A program made the translations under genes and the position numbers. Below are positions 1 through 18,983 of a DNA stretch of 32,000 nt, one piece after another. Source of the DNA: Patescibacteria group bacterium (GTDB taxonomy: Bacteria; Patescibacteriota; UBA1384; XYA2-FULL-43-10); assembly GCA_041674405.1 (NCBI GenBank), contig JBAYVT010000002.1, positions 1-32,000 of the forward strand, given 5' to 3'. The notes below the pieces were generated by a model. The model searched no databases, was not told the DNA's origin, and was given only the letters and a program-made list of their open reading frames with translations. Position 1 is the stretch's first letter. Each line of letters starts with the position of its first letter.

Positions 1-2452
<2,452 letters not shown>

Positions 2453-2783
2453 GAAATATACTTTAGATCAAAGTACTTTTCCCCCCGAAGGAGGAATAAT
2501 ACCTGACCTGTTTGACTAGCAATTACTGGATTCAACTTTCGTTGAAAAAATAATTGTTTTAATATTTTTATCGGAAGAATACATTTTGTGTAATTACATA
2601 TTAATTACTCATTTATTCAATTGTTAAAGTGCTGATAGGATTTCAATATACAAGTCCCTATCTTGTAGTTAAAATCCTGATTGTGTAACAAATTTGCTTG
2701 TCCCACCGGAGCCTAAAGGGCGAAGGGGGATGGACCATAAGGCTCGCAGCTGGTATCAAAAGTATATATCTCACATATAGGAA

Positions 2784-4534: not shown

Positions 4535-5395
4535 ATGATGGATTATTTAAAATTGGCAAAAATTGCACGTGTTGCCGCAGTATCGACTGCCTTTGTGTTT
4601 GCTGTCGGTTCGGGCGGAGCGCTTGCATCTGTCAGTGTTGGCGGCTCAAACGACACCACGGGACCAAATTCAGAAAATGAAAATGAATGGAAAATCGATG
4701 CCGATTATGATCTGGATGTGGATAACAATGCCGACTTAGAAAGTGAATTTGAGCTAGATGCAGAAACCGGTGATAATGACATCGATTGCAATACTGAGGT
4801 TGATGACATTCTTACTGGTGATATAGAAGGAGATATTTCCGTAGAGAATGAGCTTAATTCATCCGAAATCGAAGTCGGAACGGCAGATGTCGGCGACATT
4901 GAGGTTGACCTAGGAAATGAAACAACCGGGCCTTATTCAGAGAATGAGAACGAGGTCAGAATTTCAATGGATCGAGACATAGACATCGACAACGATGCAG
5001 ATGTTGAAAACGAGCTAGAACTTGATGCCAACACAGGAAAGAATCGCGTTCACAACAACACTGTTGTTGGAGATGTTCGAACCGGAGATGTTTCCCTAAG
5101 CGCTGATTTCTCCAATGTGCTTAATCAGGGAGAAATTGATTTGGGCGGACTTGGTGAAATGGACATCGAGGGAGACTTCGGAAATGAGCTAACCGGTCCA
5201 AATTCTGAAAACAGCAATGAGCTCGACATTGATGCTGACGTCGATGTAAATATCGATAACAATGCCGATATTGAAAATGAGCTTGAAGTTGATGCCAACA
5301 CTGGGAAAAACTGGATTGGCAAAAACACTGTTGTTGGTGATGTTGAGACAGGAAGTGTAGATCTTTCTTTTAGCGTTACCAACATGGCCAACTAG
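4535..5395 (+). CDS. Secreted acidic repeat protein (3 copies of a ~85-aa TGPNSEN...A(E/N)TG(D/K)N...TGD module)
   Basis: SD AAGGAG precedes ATGATG at 4535. Signal-peptide-like N-terminus (AAVSTAFVFAVGSGGALA). Three internal repeats begin at TTGPNSENENE, TTGPYSENENE and LTGPNSENSNE. Confidence 0.9.
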   Translation: MMDYLKLAKIARVAAVSTAFVFAVGSGGALASVSVGGSNDTTGPNSENENEWKIDADYDLDVDNNADLESEFELDAETGDNDIDCNTEVDDILTGDIEGDISVENELNSSEIEVGTADVGDIEVDLGNETTGPYSENENEVRISMDRDIDIDNDADVENELELDANTGKNRVHNNTVVGDVRTGDVSLSADFSNVLNQGEIDLGGLGEMDIEGDFGNELTGPNSENSNELDIDADVDVNIDNNADIENELEVDANTGKNWIGKNTVVGDVETGSVDLSFSVTNMAN

Positions 5396-5501
5396 TCCCC
5401 TGGATTAGACATTAGCGAGGACTCCGGTGTGAGTATGTCGAACACCTGGGTCCCGCAGATGTCGAATTAATTAACACTAATAATCAAACAATGGAGTGGC
5501 C

Positions 5502-7343
5502 ATGACAAAGGTTTATAGGAAAATGAAAAAAATTATTGCTGGAATAATGATTCTGGTCTTTGTGTCATTCTATTCATTACCAGCATTTGCTGCTGGTAAT
5601 ATTGGCCCGACCGGCCCACAGGAACCAACCGGAGCTATCGAACCAACTGGGCCGCAAACTCAAACTGGAGCTATTGAACCGACAGGTCCGCAGACACCGA
5701 CAGGTCCGCAGGAAATTATTTCAAACCCGATTGTGGAAACTTCGGGGACAGAGAATCAAACTGAACAAAATCTATCAAATAATTTTACCGGATCAAATTC
5801 TGAAAATCTAAATGATTCAAACTCTTCGGCCGACGCGAATATAAATCTTACGAATAATGCCGAGGCCGACAACGATATTAGTGCCAATTTAGTTACCGGT
5901 CAAAATGGAATTGGATCAAACACGGTGGTCGGTAATGTATCCACTGGCGATATCAACGGAAATGTTTGTGTTATTAATGCCCTAAATTCCTCGCTCGGGC
6001 CAGACGATTCTATTGGCGGACAGTCGATTAATACTTCAGGAATGAATGGCATCACTCTCGCTCCAGCTGATACCAGGCTAAACCTTCAAAATGCAACGAC
6101 CGGCGAAAATTCGGAAAATTCTAATGTTTTTAATGGCGGACAAGTTATCGATTTTTTCGAAGTTAACGATGCAGCCGCGAATAATTCTATTGAAATTGAT
6201 GCTGATACTGGCAACAACGAAATTTCCAACAATACCAAAGTCGGCGAGCTTCAGACCGGAGATATTGCCATCGCTGCAAATTTAATTAACCTTTTAAACA
6301 TTTCTCCGGAAATTGCACTTTCAATTGACTTTTGGAATCTTTTCGGCGGGCTTGTTGGGGATATCACTATCAGTGAAGCAAATGATATTACAGGTTCAGA
6401 TTCAGAGAATAAAAATTTGGTCAATCTGGATGGCGGGGAAGACATTTCGATCAGCAATAATTCTGAAACCAATAATAATATTAACTTGAGCGCCAATACC
6501 GGAGGCAATGCCATCGGTTCAAATACGGCAATTGGCGATATAAAAACCGGTGACTCAACAATCAAAAACACACTGGTGAATGTCGCCAATATCATTACTG
6601 CACCGGTTTTTTATCTGGTGAATGTCTTTGGTACATGGACCAGTGGAGCACTCCTTGGTATCGATCCATCGATGATATTTATTAATGAAATCAACAATAC
6701 AACAGGAACCAATTCGGAAAATTCCAATCTTGTTACTGCTGAAAATAATGCTGACCTATCGATCGAAAACAATGCTTTAATTAATAACAATTTGAATATT
6801 AAGGCCAACACCGGCAACAACAAAATTTCTAACAATACTGTTGCTGGCGGGCTCTCGACAGGTGATATAAAGCTCGCGTCCAATGTAATTAATATTTCCA
6901 ACCTGGTTGGAAAAGGCGCAAAAGCCTTCGCTCTCCGTATCATCAATATCTTCGGCAACTGGTGTGGTGGCGGAGACGGCAAGGGTGGAGGTGGCGATGA
7001 TAATAATGGTGGTGGCGAGAGTGATGGCAGCGATGAAAATGGTAGCGGACAGGGAGGCGGCGGTTTTTCGGAAAATCCAAGTGATACTGGCAGCAGCCTG
7101 GGTGGGTTTATCGGAAATGCAAAACCTTTGGCCAAACTCGCATCTTTCGAGCAAAGCAATGTTCTTCCGGACGCAGGCGGAAATTTAACAACAACTCAAA
7201 ATAATCCCGTAGTTAAATCGATGACCACAACCACTTCCAGGAGTGCCAAGGAGTTTATCTATTGGATTGCAGCAGCTAGTGCCGTTCTTATTCTCTGGGG
7301 ATCGATAGAATATTTGGCCTACAGAAAAATGAAAAAAATATAA
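5502..7343 (+). CDS. Large secreted/surface repeat protein of the same module family, with a Gly-rich linker and a C-terminal membrane anchor
   Basis: GGAG at 5493-5496 precedes ATG 5502 (the track start GTG 5496 is an alternative). It has a signal peptide and PTGPQ/EPTGP repeats. Four modules follow (FTGSNSEN, TTGENSEN, ITGSDSEN, TTGTNSEN ... ANTGxN ... TGD). The C-terminus has a GGGDGKGGGGDDNNGGG linker, then LPDAGG, then a hydrophobic helix and an RKMKKI tail. Confidence 0.9.
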   Translation: MTKVYRKMKKIIAGIMILVFVSFYSLPAFAAGNIGPTGPQEPTGAIEPTGPQTQTGAIEPTGPQTPTGPQEIISNPIVETSGTENQTEQNLSNNFTGSNSENLNDSNSSADANINLTNNAEADNDISANLVTGQNGIGSNTVVGNVSTGDINGNVCVINALNSSLGPDDSIGGQSINTSGMNGITLAPADTRLNLQNATTGENSENSNVFNGGQVIDFFEVNDAAANNSIEIDADTGNNEISNNTKVGELQTGDIAIAANLINLLNISPEIALSIDFWNLFGGLVGDITISEANDITGSDSENKNLVNLDGGEDISISNNSETNNNINLSANTGGNAIGSNTAIGDIKTGDSTIKNTLVNVANIITAPVFYLVNVFGTWTSGALLGIDPSMIFINEINNTTGTNSENSNLVTAENNADLSIENNALINNNLNIKANTGNNKISNNTVAGGLSTGDIKLASNVINISNLVGKGAKAFALRIINIFGNWCGGGDGKGGGGDDNNGGGESDGSDENGSGQGGGGFSENPSDTGSSLGGFIGNAKPLAKLASFEQSNVLPDAGGNLTTTQNNPVVKSMTTTTSRSAKEFIYWIAAASAVLILWGSIEYLAYRKMKKI

Positions 7344-7403: not shown

Positions 7404-7865
7404 CTAATCGCTCTCCATCGCAAAAGCCAGCTGGCCCTGCGAGCTGCTTACCGATAAAACTGGCAAGCTAGCTATCCCCCGGCTACTTGCGACAACCACC
7501 TTCTCAACCTCAACCTGAAATCCGAGCTGAGCCCTCGGGAATCGGCGAAGGTTGATCGGCGCGTTCGTGAGCCTCCTGCCGCCTGGTTGATGAAAGCTAA
7601 TGGCCTCCAGGAAATTCAGCCAGTATCCAACCCACTTTTCCTGGTACCATACCTTCACCCAGACTTCCTCCGTCCTCACCCCGAATGGCTCATCGGTAGT
7701 CTCACCGAAATAGTACCCCACCGGCAGCTGTATTGACTTGTTCTTGTCCGGCTCGCCATCGATGGTCGGGCCAAGGACATACATGGCAATGGCATGGCCC
7801 ACGTTGGGTCTGACATGCAGATCGATGTCATCCGGCAAACGAATGCCTCCGGGCAAGTATTGCAT
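7404..7865 (-). CDS. Hypothetical protein (153 aa) in a high-GC island
   Basis: Full-length ORF with a marked G/C third-position bias (ccc gga ggc ... ccg gat gac atc gat ctg ... ggc ccg acc atc gat ggc gag ccg gac aag aac aag). AAGAGGC lies upstream of ATG 7865. No family recognised. Confidence 0.65.
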   Translation of the reverse strand: MQYLPGGIRLPDDIDLHVRPNVGHAIAMYVLGPTIDGEPDKNKSIQLPVGYYFGETTDEPFGVRTEEVWVKVWYQEKWVGYWLNFLEAISFHQPGGRRLTNAPINLRRFPRAQLGFQVEVEKVVVASSRGIASLPVLSVSSSQGQLAFAMESD

Positions 7866-8653: not shown

Positions 8654-8686
8654 AAAATGATTCATATTCTAAGTATGAATCATTTT
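8654..8686 (-). terminator. 13-bp hairpin terminator/attenuator between the Nudix and GrpB genes
   Basis: AAAATGATTCATA (8654-8666) pairs with TATGAATCATTTT (8674-8686). T-rich sequence follows in minus sense. Confidence 0.55.
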
Positions 8687-9098
8687 AACGTTCGAGATAG
8701 TTCAATTTGATAAATAATTTTCTTGAAGGTGGCACGATATCATAGTCTTTCAATTGTCCAATGGGTATCCATTCCAACTTTTGAATGCCAGGACTTAATT
8801 TTTCTTTTCCCCCAACATACTCACATAGAGTATCGAGATAAATAAAATGTTTCTCTTCCCCGTCAACATCTTTTTTAATTTCTGTGTCCCAGGATAACCT
8901 TTCAGAGATTTTAATATCTATGCCAGTCTTTGCTTTTACTTCTTGAGTGATAACATCTTCGGGACTTAGGCCTGCACTTAGCTCGCCGCCAAATAAATAC
9001 CAAGTTTCTTTATATGGTAATGAGCCGTCTGGTTTTTTACGCATTAAAACTGAATCACCTTTTTTAACAACACCGATTACTAAAATTTTCGTTTTCAT
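8685..9098 (-). CDS. Nudix-family hydrolase with a divergent Nudix box
   Basis: GGELSAGLSPEDVITQEVKAKTG aligns to the Nudix box GX5EX7REUXEEXGU, but REx and EE are not conserved. Size and beta-strand-rich flanks fit the family. Confidence 0.65.
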   Translation of the reverse strand: MKTKILVIGVVKKGDSVLMRKKPDGSLPYKETWYLFGGELSAGLSPEDVITQEVKAKTGIDIKISERLSWDTEIKKDVDGEEKHFIYLDTLCEYVGGKEKLSPGIQKLEWIPIGQLKDYDIVPPSRKLFIKLNYLER

Positions 9099-9112
9099 AA
9101 TCTTATAATGAC

Positions 9113-9181
9113 AGTTCTAGCGTTATTTTTCCATATATAATAAAAAGACTAGCCTTGGACTAATCTTTTTTTGGTAGACCC
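9113..9181. repeat. Left copy of a ~68-bp imperfect direct repeat (terminator hairpin plus tRNA 3'-end-like TGGTAGACCC)
   Basis: AGTTCT..ATAATAAAAAGACTAGCCTTGGACTAATCTTTTTTTGGTAGACCC matches 9793-9860 (AGTTCT..ATAATAAAAAGACTAGTCTAGAACTAATCTTTTTATTGGTGGACCC). Confidence 0.7.
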
Positions 9182-9266
9182 GATAGGATCTCGAGCATCG
9201 CTTACACTCCCTTGGAAAACCCTCGGTTTTCCAGTTTTCCGACCCCTTCCCGTTCGAATCCTCAGC
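9172..9266 (-). other. tRNA-Ala 3'-end remnant fused to a conserved hairpin element (copy A); possible att remnant or tRNA-derived sRNA
   Basis: Minus sense reads ...GGATTCGAACGGGAAGGGGTCGGAAAAC[TGGAAAACC GAG GGTTTTCCA]AGGGAGTGTAAGCGATGCTCGAGATCCTATCGGGTCTACCA. The last ~30 nt align with the 3' end of tRNA-Ala-UGC. The core is shared with 17063-17171. A terminator hairpin like that of the tRNA follows. Confidence 0.5.
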
Positions 9267-9457
9267 TTTAACTCACTAAATAAAAAATCACCATTAAGGC
9301 GACATTTTTGGTGGGGCACAATCCAAGAAGTAAGAAATATCGTTATGAATTCAAATGAGTATATCTGTATTCCAAAGATGAGAATTAAATCTCTCCATAT
9401 TTAGCGGCTATTTGCTTTTCCACCATTCTGTATAACATAGATTGATAGTATGGGACT

Positions 9458-9491
9458 CCAGTGTGATGACAACAAGTTGTCATCACACTGG
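9458..9491 (-). terminator. 16-bp-arm hairpin after the zinc-ribbon ORF
   Basis: CCAGTGTGATGACAAC (9458-9473) pairs perfectly with GTTGTCATCACACTGG (9476-9491). It lies 24 nt after the TGA at 9515. Confidence 0.5.
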
Positions 9492-9514
9492 CAGCTCTGT
9501 CGAGTCGGACTTCA

Positions 9515-9712
9515 TCAGCGGCAGTCTGGGCAAAGCCCACCCTCGAGGTACTGCGTGCGAACCGCTAGTCTGCACCTCGAACATCGCATCGCGGCACCGC
9601 TCAGCAATAACGCAGTCTCGTCCATGAGCTCGGTCTCCTCGAGATACGGGCTTTTGCCAGCAGTCGCCCCTGGCGGGTCGTTACTCGTCGGGGTACGTGT
9701 TAAATGCCCCAT
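9515..9712 (-). CDS. Small zinc-ribbon-like protein (65 aa) in a high-GC island
   Basis: Strong SD AAGGGAGG 8 nt before ATG 9712. Codons are G/C-rich at the third position. The C-terminus reads CSRC-x13-CPDC (a four-Cys knuckle pair). Confidence 0.65.
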   Translation of the reverse strand: MGHLTRTPTSNDPPGATAGKSPYLEETELMDETALLLSGAAMRCSRCRLAVRTQYLEGGLCPDCR

Positions 9713-9792
9713 TTGAACAGCCTCCCTTCACTTGTCGTCCGTCGGCCACTACAGAATTGCATACTTTATACTAATAGTCAATAACATGAGAT

Positions 9793-9860
9793 AGTTCTGA
9801 CCTATTTTTTGGTATAATAAAAAGACTAGTCTAGAACTAATCTTTTTATTGGTGGACCCT
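9793..9860. repeat. Right copy of the ~68-bp direct repeat (tRNA-Ala-UGC 3' end plus its terminator hairpin)
   Basis: See 9113-9181. It includes the hairpin AAAAGACTAG..CTAATCTTTT immediately 3' of the tRNA. Confidence 0.7.
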
Positions 9861-9925
9861 ATCGGATTCGAACCGATGACCTCCACAGTGCAAATGTGGC
9901 GCTCTACCAACTAAGCTAAGGGCCC
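9850..9925 (-). tRNA. tRNA-Ala (anticodon UGC), CCA encoded
   Basis: The reverse complement GGGCCCTTAGCTTAGTTGGTAGAGCGCCACATTTGCACTGTGGAGGTCATCGGTTCGAATCCGATAGGGTCCACCA folds as a cloverleaf. Anticodon loop is TTTGCAC. The G3:U70 identity pair is present. Confidence 0.95.
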
Positions 9926-9936
9926 AGATCGACGTA

Positions 9937-9965
9937 ATGATAGCATAAACGGGGCTATTTATCAA
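9937..9965 (-). promoter_or_regulatory. Sigma70-like promoter for tRNA-Ala-UGC
   Basis: Minus sense reads TTGATA (9965-9960), a 17-nt spacer, then TATCAT (9942-9937), 11 nt before the tRNA 5' end. The hexamers are the same as at the tRNA-Ile promoter. Confidence 0.6.
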
Positions 9966-9992
9966 CCTTATACACCCTCATCCCAACAGTAA

Positions 9993-10154
9993 TTAATATG
10001 GGTTTTGGGAATATAAATATGAATACACTGCGTAGAGAACTCCAATGACTAAAAGAGCAATAATAGATCCAATTACGAGCCCTCTATTTTTCTTTACAAT
10101 GCCCCAGATCAGGCATGAGAGCGAAACTATGATTAGAATCAAACCTGTTAACAT
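9993..10154 (-). CDS. Small two-helix membrane protein (53 aa)
   Basis: The internal ATG 10154 is preceded by AATTTTGGAGGG. The sequence has two hydrophobic helices (LTGLILIIVSLSCLIWGIV and LVIGSIIALLVIGVLYAVY). The track start at 10205 lacks an SD. Confidence 0.6.
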   Translation of the reverse strand: MLTGLILIIVSLSCLIWGIVKKNRGLVIGSIIALLVIGVLYAVYSYLYSQNPY

Positions 10155-10298
10155 TTGCCCTCCAAAATTTTGATTATCTGTGCTTAAAACTTCACTACAT
10201 ACCAAAATGCACTTAATATTTTAATGTATTGTGAATGATAGCGTTATGACTTTATAAATATATTTTTATGCAAACCGCGCCTTGAACTGCGTATGCAG

Positions 10299-10989: not shown

Positions 10990-11184
10990 CTAGAATTTAA
11001 CTACATACCAAAATGCTGCTACAATCACGAGTACCCCAACAATTTTCCAAAAAGTATAAGTTCCATATGCACCGAGCACTTTTTCAACGGAAGGAAAACG
11101 CATCGTATTGTCGGTGATCCATTTTGCATATTTAATAAGAAGATAACCGAATAATATTAAAGCGATAAAAATTAAATATTTCAT
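10990..11184 (-). CDS. Small two-helix membrane protein (64 aa)
   Basis: ORF with two hydrophobic segments (YLIFIALILFGYLLI and IVGVLVIVAAFWYVV). It is tightly packed between neighbouring minus-strand genes. Confidence 0.6.
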   Translation of the reverse strand: MKYLIFIALILFGYLLIKYAKWITDNTMRFPSVEKVLGAYGTYTFWKIVGVLVIVAAFWYVVKF

Positions 11185-15613: not shown

Positions 15614-16000
15614 TTATTCCCCCTTTAATTGCTCAATAAATATTCTGTAAGCATCGGGGGTAGCTAGCAGTTTTCCAGTTCCATTTTCAAATTCTGTGAT
15701 TCGCAAATCGGTAAATGGTGCATCCACCTCATAATCATTAGCTTCGTCTTCGGTCATCAGCACCATGGGTGATCCAGCACTTTCTTTGTTTCCCGGTGCG
15801 CGGTTATCCCAAACTATCCCTCCCCAGGTCCTTACCAACGAAAGGCCGTCTATTCCTGACGGAAATTTTGCTTTTACTTTACCTTGACGAATCCAGCCCG
15901 ATTCATCACCAAGCACTTCCGGCTCAATTTGCCGCTCCTCAGTATCTGGCCCCACATCTTCCGGTCCGGGTCTGCGTCCGATGTTTATTCCGAATACCAT
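15614..16000 (-). CDS. Hypothetical protein (128 aa), GC-rich at its 5' half
   Basis: ATG 16000 is preceded by AATTTTGGAGGAAAT. The 203-aa track ORF extends over a tRNA gene and so is too long. No family recognised. Confidence 0.6.
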   Translation of the reverse strand: MVFGINIGRRPGPEDVGPDTEERQIEPEVLGDESGWIRQGKVKAKFPSGIDGLSLVRTWGGIVWDNRAPGNKESAGSPMVLMTEDEANDYEVDAPFTDLRITEFENGTGKLLATPDAYRIFIEQLKGE

Positions 16001-16102
16001 ATTTCCTCCAAAATTTTGATTATAATTAACAGATAAATGAGACTGATAGCTTGCTATAAGTTTTGTCGAATGGCCTGCCATAAGCAAATGAAGCGAGTCG
16101 AA

Positions 16103-16189
16103 TGGTGGACCTACCGGGAATTGCCCGTCTCGCTTTGGCGCAGCCGAGGCGGAAACCCGAAACTGAGCAATACGCCCCGTACCACATCT
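16103..16189 (-). other. tRNA-like remnant ending in a copy of the tRNA-Ala-CGC 3' end (TAGGTCCACCA)
   Basis: The 11 nt at 16103-16113 are identical to 16190-16200. The segment begins GGTACGGGGCG, which is complementary to CCCCGTACCC just upstream of the tRNA. Confidence 0.45.
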
Positions 16190-16263
16190 TGGTGGACCTA
16201 GCGAGAGTCGAACTCGCGTCTCCACAATGCGAATGTGGAATCGTACCGCTAGACCATAGGCCC
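16190..16263 (-). tRNA. tRNA-Ala (anticodon CGC), CCA encoded
   Basis: Reverse complement GGGCCTATGGTCTAGCGGTACGATTCCACATTCGCATTGTGGAGACGCGAGTTCGACTCTCGCTAGGTCCACCA. Anticodon loop is TTCGCAT. G3:U70 is present. The D stem is short (3 bp). Confidence 0.8.
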
Positions 16264-16359
16264 AAATGGGTACGGGGTAAAAATGCCTGCTACCTGCCCC
16301 GTATTGAACTCTGTTCTGATACTGGGGTGCCGTTTAACTATAGGCCCATTATCAGTATT

Positions 16360-17062: not shown

Positions 17063-17171
17063 TGGTGGGCGTGAGAGGAATCTCACGCGCTTCGCTTTTC
17101 AGAACCCTCGGTTCTGAATTATCTCCTACACGGGAAACTTCTGTTTCCCGACCCCTTCCCGGGTCCGATTC
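17063..17171 (-). other. tRNA-Ile 3'-end copy fused to a conserved hairpin element (copy B); pseudo-tRNA, att remnant or sRNA
   Basis: Minus sense reads CGGGAAGGGGTCGG[GGGAAAC AGAA GTTTCCC]GTGTAGGAGATAAT[TCAGAACC GAG GGTTCTGA]AAAGCGAAGC[GCGTGAGA TTCC TCTCACGC]CCACCA. The last 20 nt are identical to the tRNA-Ile 3' end. Confidence 0.5.
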
Positions 17172-17214
17172 TAAATTACAAAAAAATAGCCAGTAATAAT
17201 ACTGCCTATCTTTT

Positions 17215-17291
17215 TGGTGGGCGTGAGAGGAATCGAACCTCTGACCTCGGCTTTATCAGAGCCGCGCTCTAACCAACTGAGCTACACGCCC
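17215..17291 (-). tRNA. tRNA-Ile (anticodon GAU), CCA encoded
   Basis: Reverse complement GGGCGTGTAGCTCAGTTGGTTAGAGCGCGGCTCTGATAAAGCCGAGGTCAGAGGTTCGATTCCTCTCACGCCCACCA. It forms a clean cloverleaf with anticodon loop CTGATAA. Confidence 0.95.

Positions 17292-17530: not shown

Positions 17531-18983
<1,453 letters not shown>

Follow-up and report, generated by a model that had tools for sequence, protein, structure and literature searches.

In hyperplastic regions of T4-type phages, PeSL units, i.e. composites of a promoter and a stem-loop, lie between small ORFans, and recombination between units was shown in these phages to delete, duplicate or swap the intervening DNA (PMC2839356; PMC4122927). 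In islands of Prochlorococcus, repeated integration leaving partial tRNAs is documented (bioRxiv 10.1101/2020.12.28.424599; also PMC9897764). We analysed a 32,000-nucleotide stretch of a Patescibacteria group bacterium (contig JBAYVT010000002.1, positions 1 to 32,000; hereafter the window, GC content 42%) and in it the interval 9113-9860 behind the tRNA-Ala(UGC) gene, all features of which are read on the minus strand. We rate this interval as a variation on known kinds, namely PeSL-like cassettes and tRNA-anchored islands. The reading we favour, which we consider probable if only just, is that it represents two modules of a repeat-delimited, recombining variable region anchored at tRNA-Ala(UGC) and organised in a PeSL-like manner. 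Contigs and loci used for comparison are labelled with L-numbers.

The initial annotation had described a segment of about 680 bp between imperfect direct repeats behind tRNA-Ala(UGC) and read it as a footprint of site-specific integration. Segment and repeats are present: the copies at 9113-9181 and 9793-9860 have in common a core of 35 nt that is 91% identical and align over about 93 nt (72/97 positions identical with gaps), the local alignment score being 45, whereas 300 shuffles averaged 8.8 and reached at most 17. They take in the 3' part of the tRNA gene, which is a criterion for islands at attachment (att) sites. Both hairpins are A/U-rich and terminator-like, as a chance or generic likeness of two A/T-rich terminators having no common origin would have it. 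With the alignment score far above the shuffles and the similarity running through the non-hairpin flanks on both sides, which are conserved in relatives, this explanation is effectively refuted and retains next to no probability.

We identified the repeats as copies of a boundary unit of about 75 nt, consisting of CCACCAAT, a 12-13-bp A/U-rich hairpin of the intrinsic-terminator type with a U-run, the sequence ATTATA, a mini-hairpin and TTAGAACT. Scanning metagenome contigs with the two hairpin arms only (AAAAAGATTAGT N6-9 TAGTCTTTTTATTATA) yielded 13 loci, which together with the window and L008 hold 21 unit copies in 15 sequences. Flanks absent from the search pattern recur as well, CCACCAA standing ahead in 18 of the 21 copies and a TTAGAAC-like tail following the small hairpin in 13, and the stems of the mini-hairpin covary (CCC..GGG, CCTA..TAGG). 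The unit hairpins fold stably (predicted -16.2 kcal/mol for copy 1 of the window), and where the hairpin sequence differs, as in T2 and in copy b of L008, the position still holds a hairpin and therefore fits a terminator role. Five copies follow a tRNA-Ala gene (window, L008, L050, L057, L059); the other 16 are not adjacent to a tRNA gene and lie between ordinary small genes. Copies are found after the spacer element M3 (L008 and three times in L057), after an E-like element (L062; both element types are described below), after an element 'GTTCGAGC..GAACACACCACCA' (L053, L058, L060) and after a small reverse-strand open reading frame (ORF) beside a pair of genes for a PLD nuclease and a helix-turn-helix (HTH) protein (L051, L052, L054, L061). 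In L057, L058 and L059, the unit precedes extended -10 boxes (TGnTATAAT). At three of these loci (L051:1463-2615; L054:3653-4803; L061:275-1410) a conserved trio adjoins the unit copy, composed of a PLD-like nuclease, an Xre-type HTH protein and a reverse-strand ORF of 30-37 amino acids (MVD..W..F..VL.WEP.LR) beginning within the GTCCACCAAT of the unit.

The most informative locus is L057, which opens in the tRNA-Ala 3' end plus unit and continues with ORFs of 283, 88, 56, 62 and 52+ amino acids parted by spacers of M3 plus unit, four unit copies falling within 2.5 kb. L055 has two units around a 204-amino-acid ORFan, and the cargo genes of the L057 array, L055, L008 and the window are mostly ORFans without Pfam match. 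Because the unit recurs in relatives and forms the array of L057, the repeats of the window are boundary units of a cassette array, the interval holding one ORF cassette and one non-coding module (M4). Being copies of a recurring, putative terminator-plus-promoter unit, the repeats at tRNA-Ala are thus not the footprint of a single integrase event, and direct repeats containing a tRNA end do not by themselves prove integrase activity. A repeat specific to the insertion, as originally proposed, is contradicted by these numbers; the initial annotation had itself named a motif found after many genes as evidence against its reading, and the 21 copies largely correspond to that.

We favour a model according to which the tRNA-Ala 3' flank would be the prototype of the boundary unit, the promoter of the next gene following TTAGAACT. 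Module 1 would be a self-contained, horizontally acquired expression cassette made up of a promoter-like box, a Shine-Dalgarno sequence, a gene for a 65-amino-acid zinc-ribbon protein (ORF65) and a 3' hairpin, closed by the M3 spacer with its terminator, and module 2 would be a decayed E element, M4. Each unit would stop transcription of the tRNA or cassette and let the next gene, here the Nudix gene, start, thereby insulating the cassettes; we infer this terminator and promoter activity from sequence features. Identical, directly oriented units of 60-190 bp would serve as substrates for recombination, which we infer to be either homologous or carried out by an unknown recombinase acting in trans, and the DNA between them could be deleted, duplicated or swapped, so that over evolution cassettes would be gained, lost and exchanged at the units. 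The likeness to PeSL units lies in the short conserved composites, here of putative stem-loop terminator and putative promoter, between small ORFans, in gene content at the units differing between relatives and in the proposed mechanism, i.e. unit recombination. In contrast to the phage units, those described here lie in a Patescibacteria chromosome, are anchored at a tRNA-Ala 3' end, show the order putative terminator then putative promoter, and contain in addition CCACCAAT, the mini-hairpin, TTAGAACT and often M3; mini-circles or recombinants were not observed.

ORF65 is a real gene of foreign composition. Its GC content is 61% compared to 33-41% in the flanks, two close homologs share 77% and 75% identity, and dN/dS is 0.12-0.15 (about 0.13), synonymous changes dominating. 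The high-GC ORF with its CSRC-x13-CPDC ribbon, the strong Shine-Dalgarno sequence and the hairpin with 16-bp arms, all reported initially, were each found at the place given for them. A full HMMER scan returned at least 125 homologous protein clusters (E <= 1e-3) and a profile search 60 proteins, the family being characterised by the motif MGxxTRxPTSND at the N-terminus, a helix and, at the C-terminus, a CxxC...CPDC ribbon. The AlphaFold2 model (pLDDT 77) predicts a helix and a zinc ribbon besides an N-terminus that is disordered; Pfam, PHROGs, a PDB sequence search and Foldseek gave no significant match. Looking for the protein elsewhere, as the initial annotation had suggested, revealed homologs, some of them in phage-like and mobile-element contexts: one family member is encoded in a densely packed 142-kb phage-like contig and another beside genes for type IV secretion system coupling, Fic and reverse transcriptase, while a further one is a lone gene among housekeeping genes.

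Promoter-like box, ORF and 3' hairpin travel together in the window, L008 and L063. The box reads TTGATA-N17-AATTCT in L008 and TTGACT-N17-AATTCT in L063, and the 3' hairpin occupies the same place in both with a different stem sequence, resulting in covarying stems. Together with the occurrence of the module in other contexts (L008, L009, L063, L065) this supports a foreign, modular element that is probably equipped with a promoter and a hairpin of its own. The 5' GGGGCAT at the ATG of ORF65 can pair with GTGCCCC-ACCA at 9309-9319, compensatory changes being present in L008. A transfer-messenger RNA (tmRNA) or another large structured RNA in place of a protein gene was rejected because of the conservation at codon level (e.g. 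Ser AGT to TCG, besides the low dN/dS) and because neither ARAGORN nor Rfam finds one; the region is protein-coding. In L009 (330-1560), a 66-amino-acid homolog of ORF65 is located in an array of small zinc-finger ORFs of about 50% GC, in which every ORF is followed by a terminator and a conserved TTTTTCCAGTCTTTG motif, representing an independent case of repeat-delimited cassettes.

Content behind a near-identical tRNA plus unit differs between the window, L008, L050, L057, L059 and L062. L008 shows the ORF65 cassette after tRNA-Ala plus unit, closed by M3 plus unit as in the window, while the outer flanks differ, the Nudix gene bordering the cassette in the window and purD in L008, where it lies between an acetyltransferase gene and purD and about 50 extra nt separate the unit from the ORF promoter. 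In L050 and L059 another gene directly follows tRNA plus unit and the flanks are not syntenic with the window, and in L062 the unit comes after the terminator of the tRNA itself and an E-like element. This shows the tRNA-Ala 3' flank to be a variable hotspot; a recent insertion is not shown. Seven contigs from six samples encoding the identical Nudix or 65-amino-acid protein, obtained by exact-protein look-up, show no difference from the window over 753-1700 nt (100% identity) and all carry the segment, so that the empty site the initial annotation had proposed to look for was not found within the strain. The strain is present in the samples ERZ27247358, JGI 3300037067, SRR6484325, SRR18595300, SRR22315508 and ERZ27247363. 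Searching the genome collection for the 3' half of tRNA-Ala led to 40 contigs of distant Patescibacteria, in which no synteny was seen. Three independent strain assemblies (L004, L005, L006) break inside the tRNA-Ala T-arm, their starts mapping to window positions 9865-9881, a pattern that would be expected of co-occurring strains having the tRNA in common and differing next to it.

Serial site-specific integration at the tRNA-Ala 3' end, of the tycheposon type or as in classical tRNA islands, would account for part of this pattern and appears to us possible, albeit clearly on the unlikely side. According to this explanation, attP would consist of the tRNA 3' end plus terminator and the recombinase would be encoded elsewhere or lost; each event would have generated a further copy of the att block and displaced earlier inserts, M4 and then M3, in the downstream direction, leaving integrase-less remnants or mini-elements mobilised in trans. 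An insert flanked by direct repeats including the tRNA 3' end is what it predicts, as are the stacked CCACCA-ended pieces, noticed initially and indeed present at the site, and the result resembles the partial-tRNA pattern documented for Prochlorococcus. The same architecture is encountered in L049, which belongs to another lineage and has an unrelated terminator: an insert of 757 bp behind tRNA-Ala(UGC), containing one reverse-strand ORFan of 179 amino acids, is bounded by direct repeats of about 55 nt made up of GGTCCACCA and the lineage's own terminator, which looks like a classical att duplication. In L022, where the tRNA-Ala(GGC) gene has no encoded CCA, only the distal copy has CCA, as expected of a displaced native end. 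The homology between E elements and tRNAs breaks inside the T-loop, which is reportedly a known crossover sublocation of tRNA integrases.

Several observations oppose serial integration. As the initial annotation had stated, an integrase is missing: Pfam scans of the sizeable ORFs of the window detected neither integrase nor transposase domains, and no recombinase was found in 28 ORFs of the window or in 9 unit-adjacent ORFs of relatives. Most of the unit copies (16/21) are not next to a tRNA gene, and the left cassette junctions are irregular, as illustrated by the extra nucleotides in L008. Strain contigs revealed no empty site and viral-contig scans no viral or attP copy. The dS of about 1 between the tRNA-linked ORF65 copies of the window and L008, which is near saturation, speaks against recent mobility and indicates residence of long standing, not recent insertion. 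A phage or attP origin was rejected, scans of viral contigs with the ORF family, the unit hairpin, the E core and the M3 box being negative or giving chance matches in high-GC contigs. Of the original integration reading, the foreign modular cargo and the variable tRNA flank stand; the repeat, however, is not a private att pair. With tRNA islands (Prochlorococcus tycheposons; PMC9897764) the interval shares tRNA-3'-end direct repeats, stacked tRNA-end pieces, variable cargo and integrase-less remnants; it differs in that no integrase was found nearby, the modules measure only 0.1-1.1 kb, and the repeat, which continues for about 65 nt beyond the tRNA, is also encountered at a distance from tRNAs, between ordinary genes.

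The distal repeat extends into T-arm-like sequence (TCGAGATCCTATCGGGTCTACCA vs TCGAATCCGATAGGGTCCACCA), which is explained by M4, a member of a family of small non-coding elements, termed E elements, that are located behind tRNAs and have at their end a copy of the T-loop-to-CCA segment of the respective tRNA. The window contains two further members on the minus strand. E(Ile) at 17063-17214, behind tRNA-Ile (17215-17291), comprises a terminator hairpin, GAATCGGACCC-GGGAAGGGGTCGGGAAAC, two hairpins and GTGAGAT, followed by 22 nt that repeat the tRNA-Ile 3' end exactly (GATTCCTCTCACGCCCACCAAA), 152 nt past the original. E(Ala-CGC) at 16103-16189 (87 nt), behind tRNA-Ala(CGC) (16190-16263), starts with GGGGCGTATTGCTCAGTTTCGGG, resembling the 5' part of a tRNA, and ends in CGGTAGGTCCACCA, matching the tRNA end at 13/14 positions 87 nt downstream of it. 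With these elements behind two other tRNAs, the distal tRNA-like piece, initially regarded as part of an integration footprint, is explained by the family. M4 itself matches the tRNA end at about 12/16 positions, includes GGATTCGAAC and GGGAAGGGGTCGGAAAAC (minus-strand order) and shares its core motif with E(Ile), L014 and L036, its hairpin 2 covarying; we judge it to be a decayed E element, since the first hairpin and the matching 5' strand are missing. What had been called a hairpin-element copy is there, its identity being corrected to a degenerate representative of the E family, whose elements terminate in copies of tRNA 3' ends.

Across 61 Patescibacteria-type loci, a copy of the own 3' end (at least 14 nt, up to 2 mismatches, within 1.2 kb) was detected downstream of 9/64 tRNAs and upstream of 1/64. 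In 416 kb, the subfamily defined by GGGAAGGGGTCGG is represented by four elements, every one of them following a tRNA, i.e. Ile and Ala in the window, Ala in L014 (an Uhrbacteria chromosome) and Arg in L036; its two internal hairpins covary when compared one by one, the four-element MAFFT alignment being poor. Homology with the tRNA begins inside the T-loop after the conserved GTGAGAT, and the 5' part of the elements carries an inverted T-loop, to which L014 and L036 add inverted versions of T-stem and acceptor strand. Because of this inversion the RNA is predicted to close into an acceptor/T-stem-like helix with a free ACCA, with G3:U70 in the models of L014 and L022. Elements of the same kind occur in other Patescibacteria behind tRNA-Ala, tRNA-Arg and tRNA-Pro (L014:1343-1530; L036:4810-4980; L022; L024), and at a contig edge in L024 the tRNA-Arg 3' end is tandemly repeated in units of 40 nt. 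Rfam at E <= 10 returned only noise for M3, M4 and E, excluding these as a known RNA family, and we found no description of E elements in the literature, the family being apparently undescribed.

Downstream of tyrT of E. coli lie 178-bp repeats encoding rtT RNA (Rfam RF00391), and these represent the nearest known precedent of the E elements, M4 included: both are non-coding, directly behind a tRNA and copy its last approximately 20 nt. E elements differ in being single, not tandem, in lacking sequence similarity to these repeats and giving no match to the Rfam rtT model at the same threshold, in the inverted T-loop/acceptor copy at the 5' side and the covarying hairpins, and in following several different tRNAs. 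By analogy, the tRNA 3' end and its flank may have been duplicated locally, with later insertion between the copies and the unit itself immobile. E(Ile), with its exact copy, and E(Ala-CGC) look like such duplications, yet the 16 unit copies away from tRNAs, the L057 array and the same GGGAAGGGGTCGG core behind three tRNA species in three lineages are left unexplained, the rtT model gives no match, and units or E cores in places that have nothing to do with the tRNA copied in their ends were in part observed; we regard this explanation as very improbable. A tmRNA-like nature was considered as well: the L014 element begins with 5' GGGAUCU-AUC-GGAUUCGAAC-GGGAA, resembling a tmRNA 5' end, and the predicted closing helix with G3:U70 and 3' ACCA in L014 and L022 is tmRNA-like. 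The permuted-tmRNA model scores E elements at 19 and 14 bits, far below the gathering score of 47, and in contrast to tmRNA they are devoid of a tag reading frame, a T-arm and pseudoknots and also mimic Ile, Arg and Pro tRNAs. ARAGORN detected no tmRNA in the window and Rfam none at 8900-10100; the relative L052 has a normal tmRNA.

M3, of about 85 nt, aligns in seven copies (window, two in L008, four in L057), and a terminator hairpin follows every full copy. In the alignment of these seven spacers a conserved block of about 170-190 nt ends sharply in TTTAATTCTCATC on the left and TTAGAACT on the right; in two copies the hairpin is of different sequence and still a hairpin. The third tRNA-end-like fragment noted initially (GGATTGTGCCCCACCA, 9309-9324) is present, a tRNA origin being not demonstrable; it corresponds to the conserved 3' end of M3. 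A conserved RNA fold was rejected for M3 (RNAalifold -2.6 kcal/mol, essentially no covariation). The sharp boundaries, an imperfect inverted similarity of the ends (TTCTCATCTTTGG vs CCAAAGTGAGGGTTAGAA) and a solitary copy of M3 plus unit after purD in L008 are compatible with M3 plus unit being an insertion element of about 190 bp resembling a miniature inverted-repeat transposable element (cf. Correia elements of Neisseria), which would spread into intergenic regions and bring along a terminator and an outward promoter, the tRNA-proximal repeat being a 5'-truncated copy fused at the shared CCACCA. We consider this improbable. The ends are weakly inverse without clear covariation, neither target-site duplications nor presence/absence polymorphism were seen in the copies compared, 14/21 unit copies are without M3, no transposase candidate was found, and a replaceable hairpin sequence fits a terminator better than recognition of a transposon end.

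Some points weigh against the PeSL-like reading. Close strains revealed neither a deletion allele nor a circle nor an exchanged cassette, the seven strain contigs being identical; the hairpin T1 has few G-C pairs, its terminator activity being only predicted; the sample of relatives is small and was chosen by the hairpin pattern itself; and the L049 insert resembles an att duplication. Furthermore, the conserved CCACCAAT, the sharp TTAGAACT boundary and the mini-hairpin exceed what a terminator needs and could mark a site for site-specific recombination, in which case integrase- or integron-like explanations would be favoured. Small single-gene cassettes parted by a repeated, partly palindromic site at one fixed anchor are indeed reminiscent of integrons. 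Integron attC sites have an inverse core RYYYAAC and a core GTTRRRY; the tail GGTTAGAAC, present in 13/21 unit copies, loosely resembles the latter, and its left partner GTTCCACC matches its inverse at 6/9 positions by eye. Unlike integrons, no IntI lies beside the anchor or anywhere in the window, the cassettes have their own putative promoters and a consistent inverse core was not evident. A platform in which units of CCACCA plus hairpin would be sites of a trans-acting recombinase, integron-like with no linked integrase, and in which E elements would form an undescribed structured class copying T-loop-to-CCA, either as mimics of the tRNA top half (L014 and L022 with G3:U70 and 3' CCA) or as T-loop-targeting miniature insertion elements, is in our view rather unlikely.

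The features of the interval and its immediate surroundings are collected below.

Table. Features of the interval behind tRNA-Ala(UGC), in minus-strand order
Feature	Position	Strand	Basis
Predicted sigma-70-like promoter of tRNA-Ala(UGC), TTGATA-17-TATCAT with TG	9937..9965	-	Consensus scan, 10/12 positions match
tRNA-Ala(UGC), CCA encoded	9850..9925	-	ARAGORN; Rfam tRNA model 72.1 bits
Boundary unit copy 1: CCACCA-AT, terminator hairpin 9819-9847 (29 nt) and U-run, ATTATA, mini-hairpin CC..GG, TCAGAACT	9793..9855	-	Sequence, repeat family D1, relatives
Promoter-like box of the ORF module, TTGACT-N17-(TGC)AATTCT; putative promoter	9753..9781	-	Kept with the ORF in L008 and L063
Shine-Dalgarno sequence AAGGGAGG, 8 nt ahead of ATG	9721..9728	-	Direct reading
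65-amino-acid zinc-ribbon gene, ORF65 (MGHLTRTPTSND...CSRC-x13-CPDC)	9515..9712	-	ORF list, homologs
Perfect hairpin with 16-bp arms 3' of the ORF, no U-run	9458..9491		Inverted repeat I2
M3 spacer element (TTTAATTCTCATCTTTGGAATA ... TTGGATTGTGCCCCACCA), 3' end GTGCCCCACCA	9309..9394	-	Seven aligned copies
Terminator hairpin T2 and T-run closing M3	9278..9303	-	Terminator scan; at the unit-hairpin position in the spacer alignment
Tail of second unit, AGTGAGTTAAAGC, cf. AAGTGAGGGTTAGAAC; weak resemblance	9265..9277	-	Comparison with unit tails by eye
M4, degenerate E element: GAGGATTCGAAC, GGGAAGGGGTCGGAAAAC, hairpin GGAAAACC-GAG-GGTTTTCC, end GATCCTATCGGGTCTACCA	9172..9263	-	Core motif comparison
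Boundary unit copy 3: CTACCA-AA, hairpin 9142-9170, ATTATA, spacer, TAGAACT	9113..9177	-	Repeat D1, terminator scan, alignment
Nudix gene, 14 nt past unit 3; -10-like CATTATAAG at 9102-9110	8685..9098	-	Pfam NUDIX E = 1.3e-7; sequence

Outside the interval, the rRNA operon of the window is split on the minus strand, the 16S gene (17533-18983) and the start of the 23S gene (2460) being about 15 kb apart. The gap between window 1-2460 and 17533-18983 holds three tRNAs and about 15 mostly unannotatable protein genes, indicating an unlinked or interrupted operon. A second GC-rich island at 7404-7865 (minus strand, 55-59% GC) contains a 153-amino-acid ORF without Pfam match and may be a further foreign cassette. 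Coding repeats with a period of 267 bp at 4645-6420 lie inside the ORFs 4535-5395 and 5496-7343, which encode repeat-domain proteins without Pfam match. A repeat of 88% identity links 10185-10210 and 10991-11016, the former copy being the orphaned rest of the C-terminus (AFWYVVKF-stop) of a paralogue of a 64-amino-acid membrane ORF (10990-11184); homologs of this ORF are also found in L008 and L062. A block of promoter and 5' untranslated region, ATAATCAAAATTTTGGAGG-N4-5-ATG (minus strand), is common to two genes (10149-10177 and 15995-16023) and constitutes another recurrent regulatory unit. About 70 nt upstream of tRNA-Ala(CGC), GGGCCTATAGTTAAACGG at 16330-16347 (minus strand) is similar to a tRNA-Ala 5' fragment, its position being conserved in the relative L059 at about 5600-5640.

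The E-element family is the most novel lead of this work, and its members may be RNAs that mimic tRNAs or, alternatively, traces left by insertions into the T-loop. If the PeSL-like reading of the interval is true, it would mean that streamlined bacteria of the candidate phyla radiation (CPR)/Patescibacteria without obvious mobile machinery still try out small foreign genes, and that short regulatory units seeded at a tRNA 3' flank would make each ORFan an independently expressed, exchangeable cassette.

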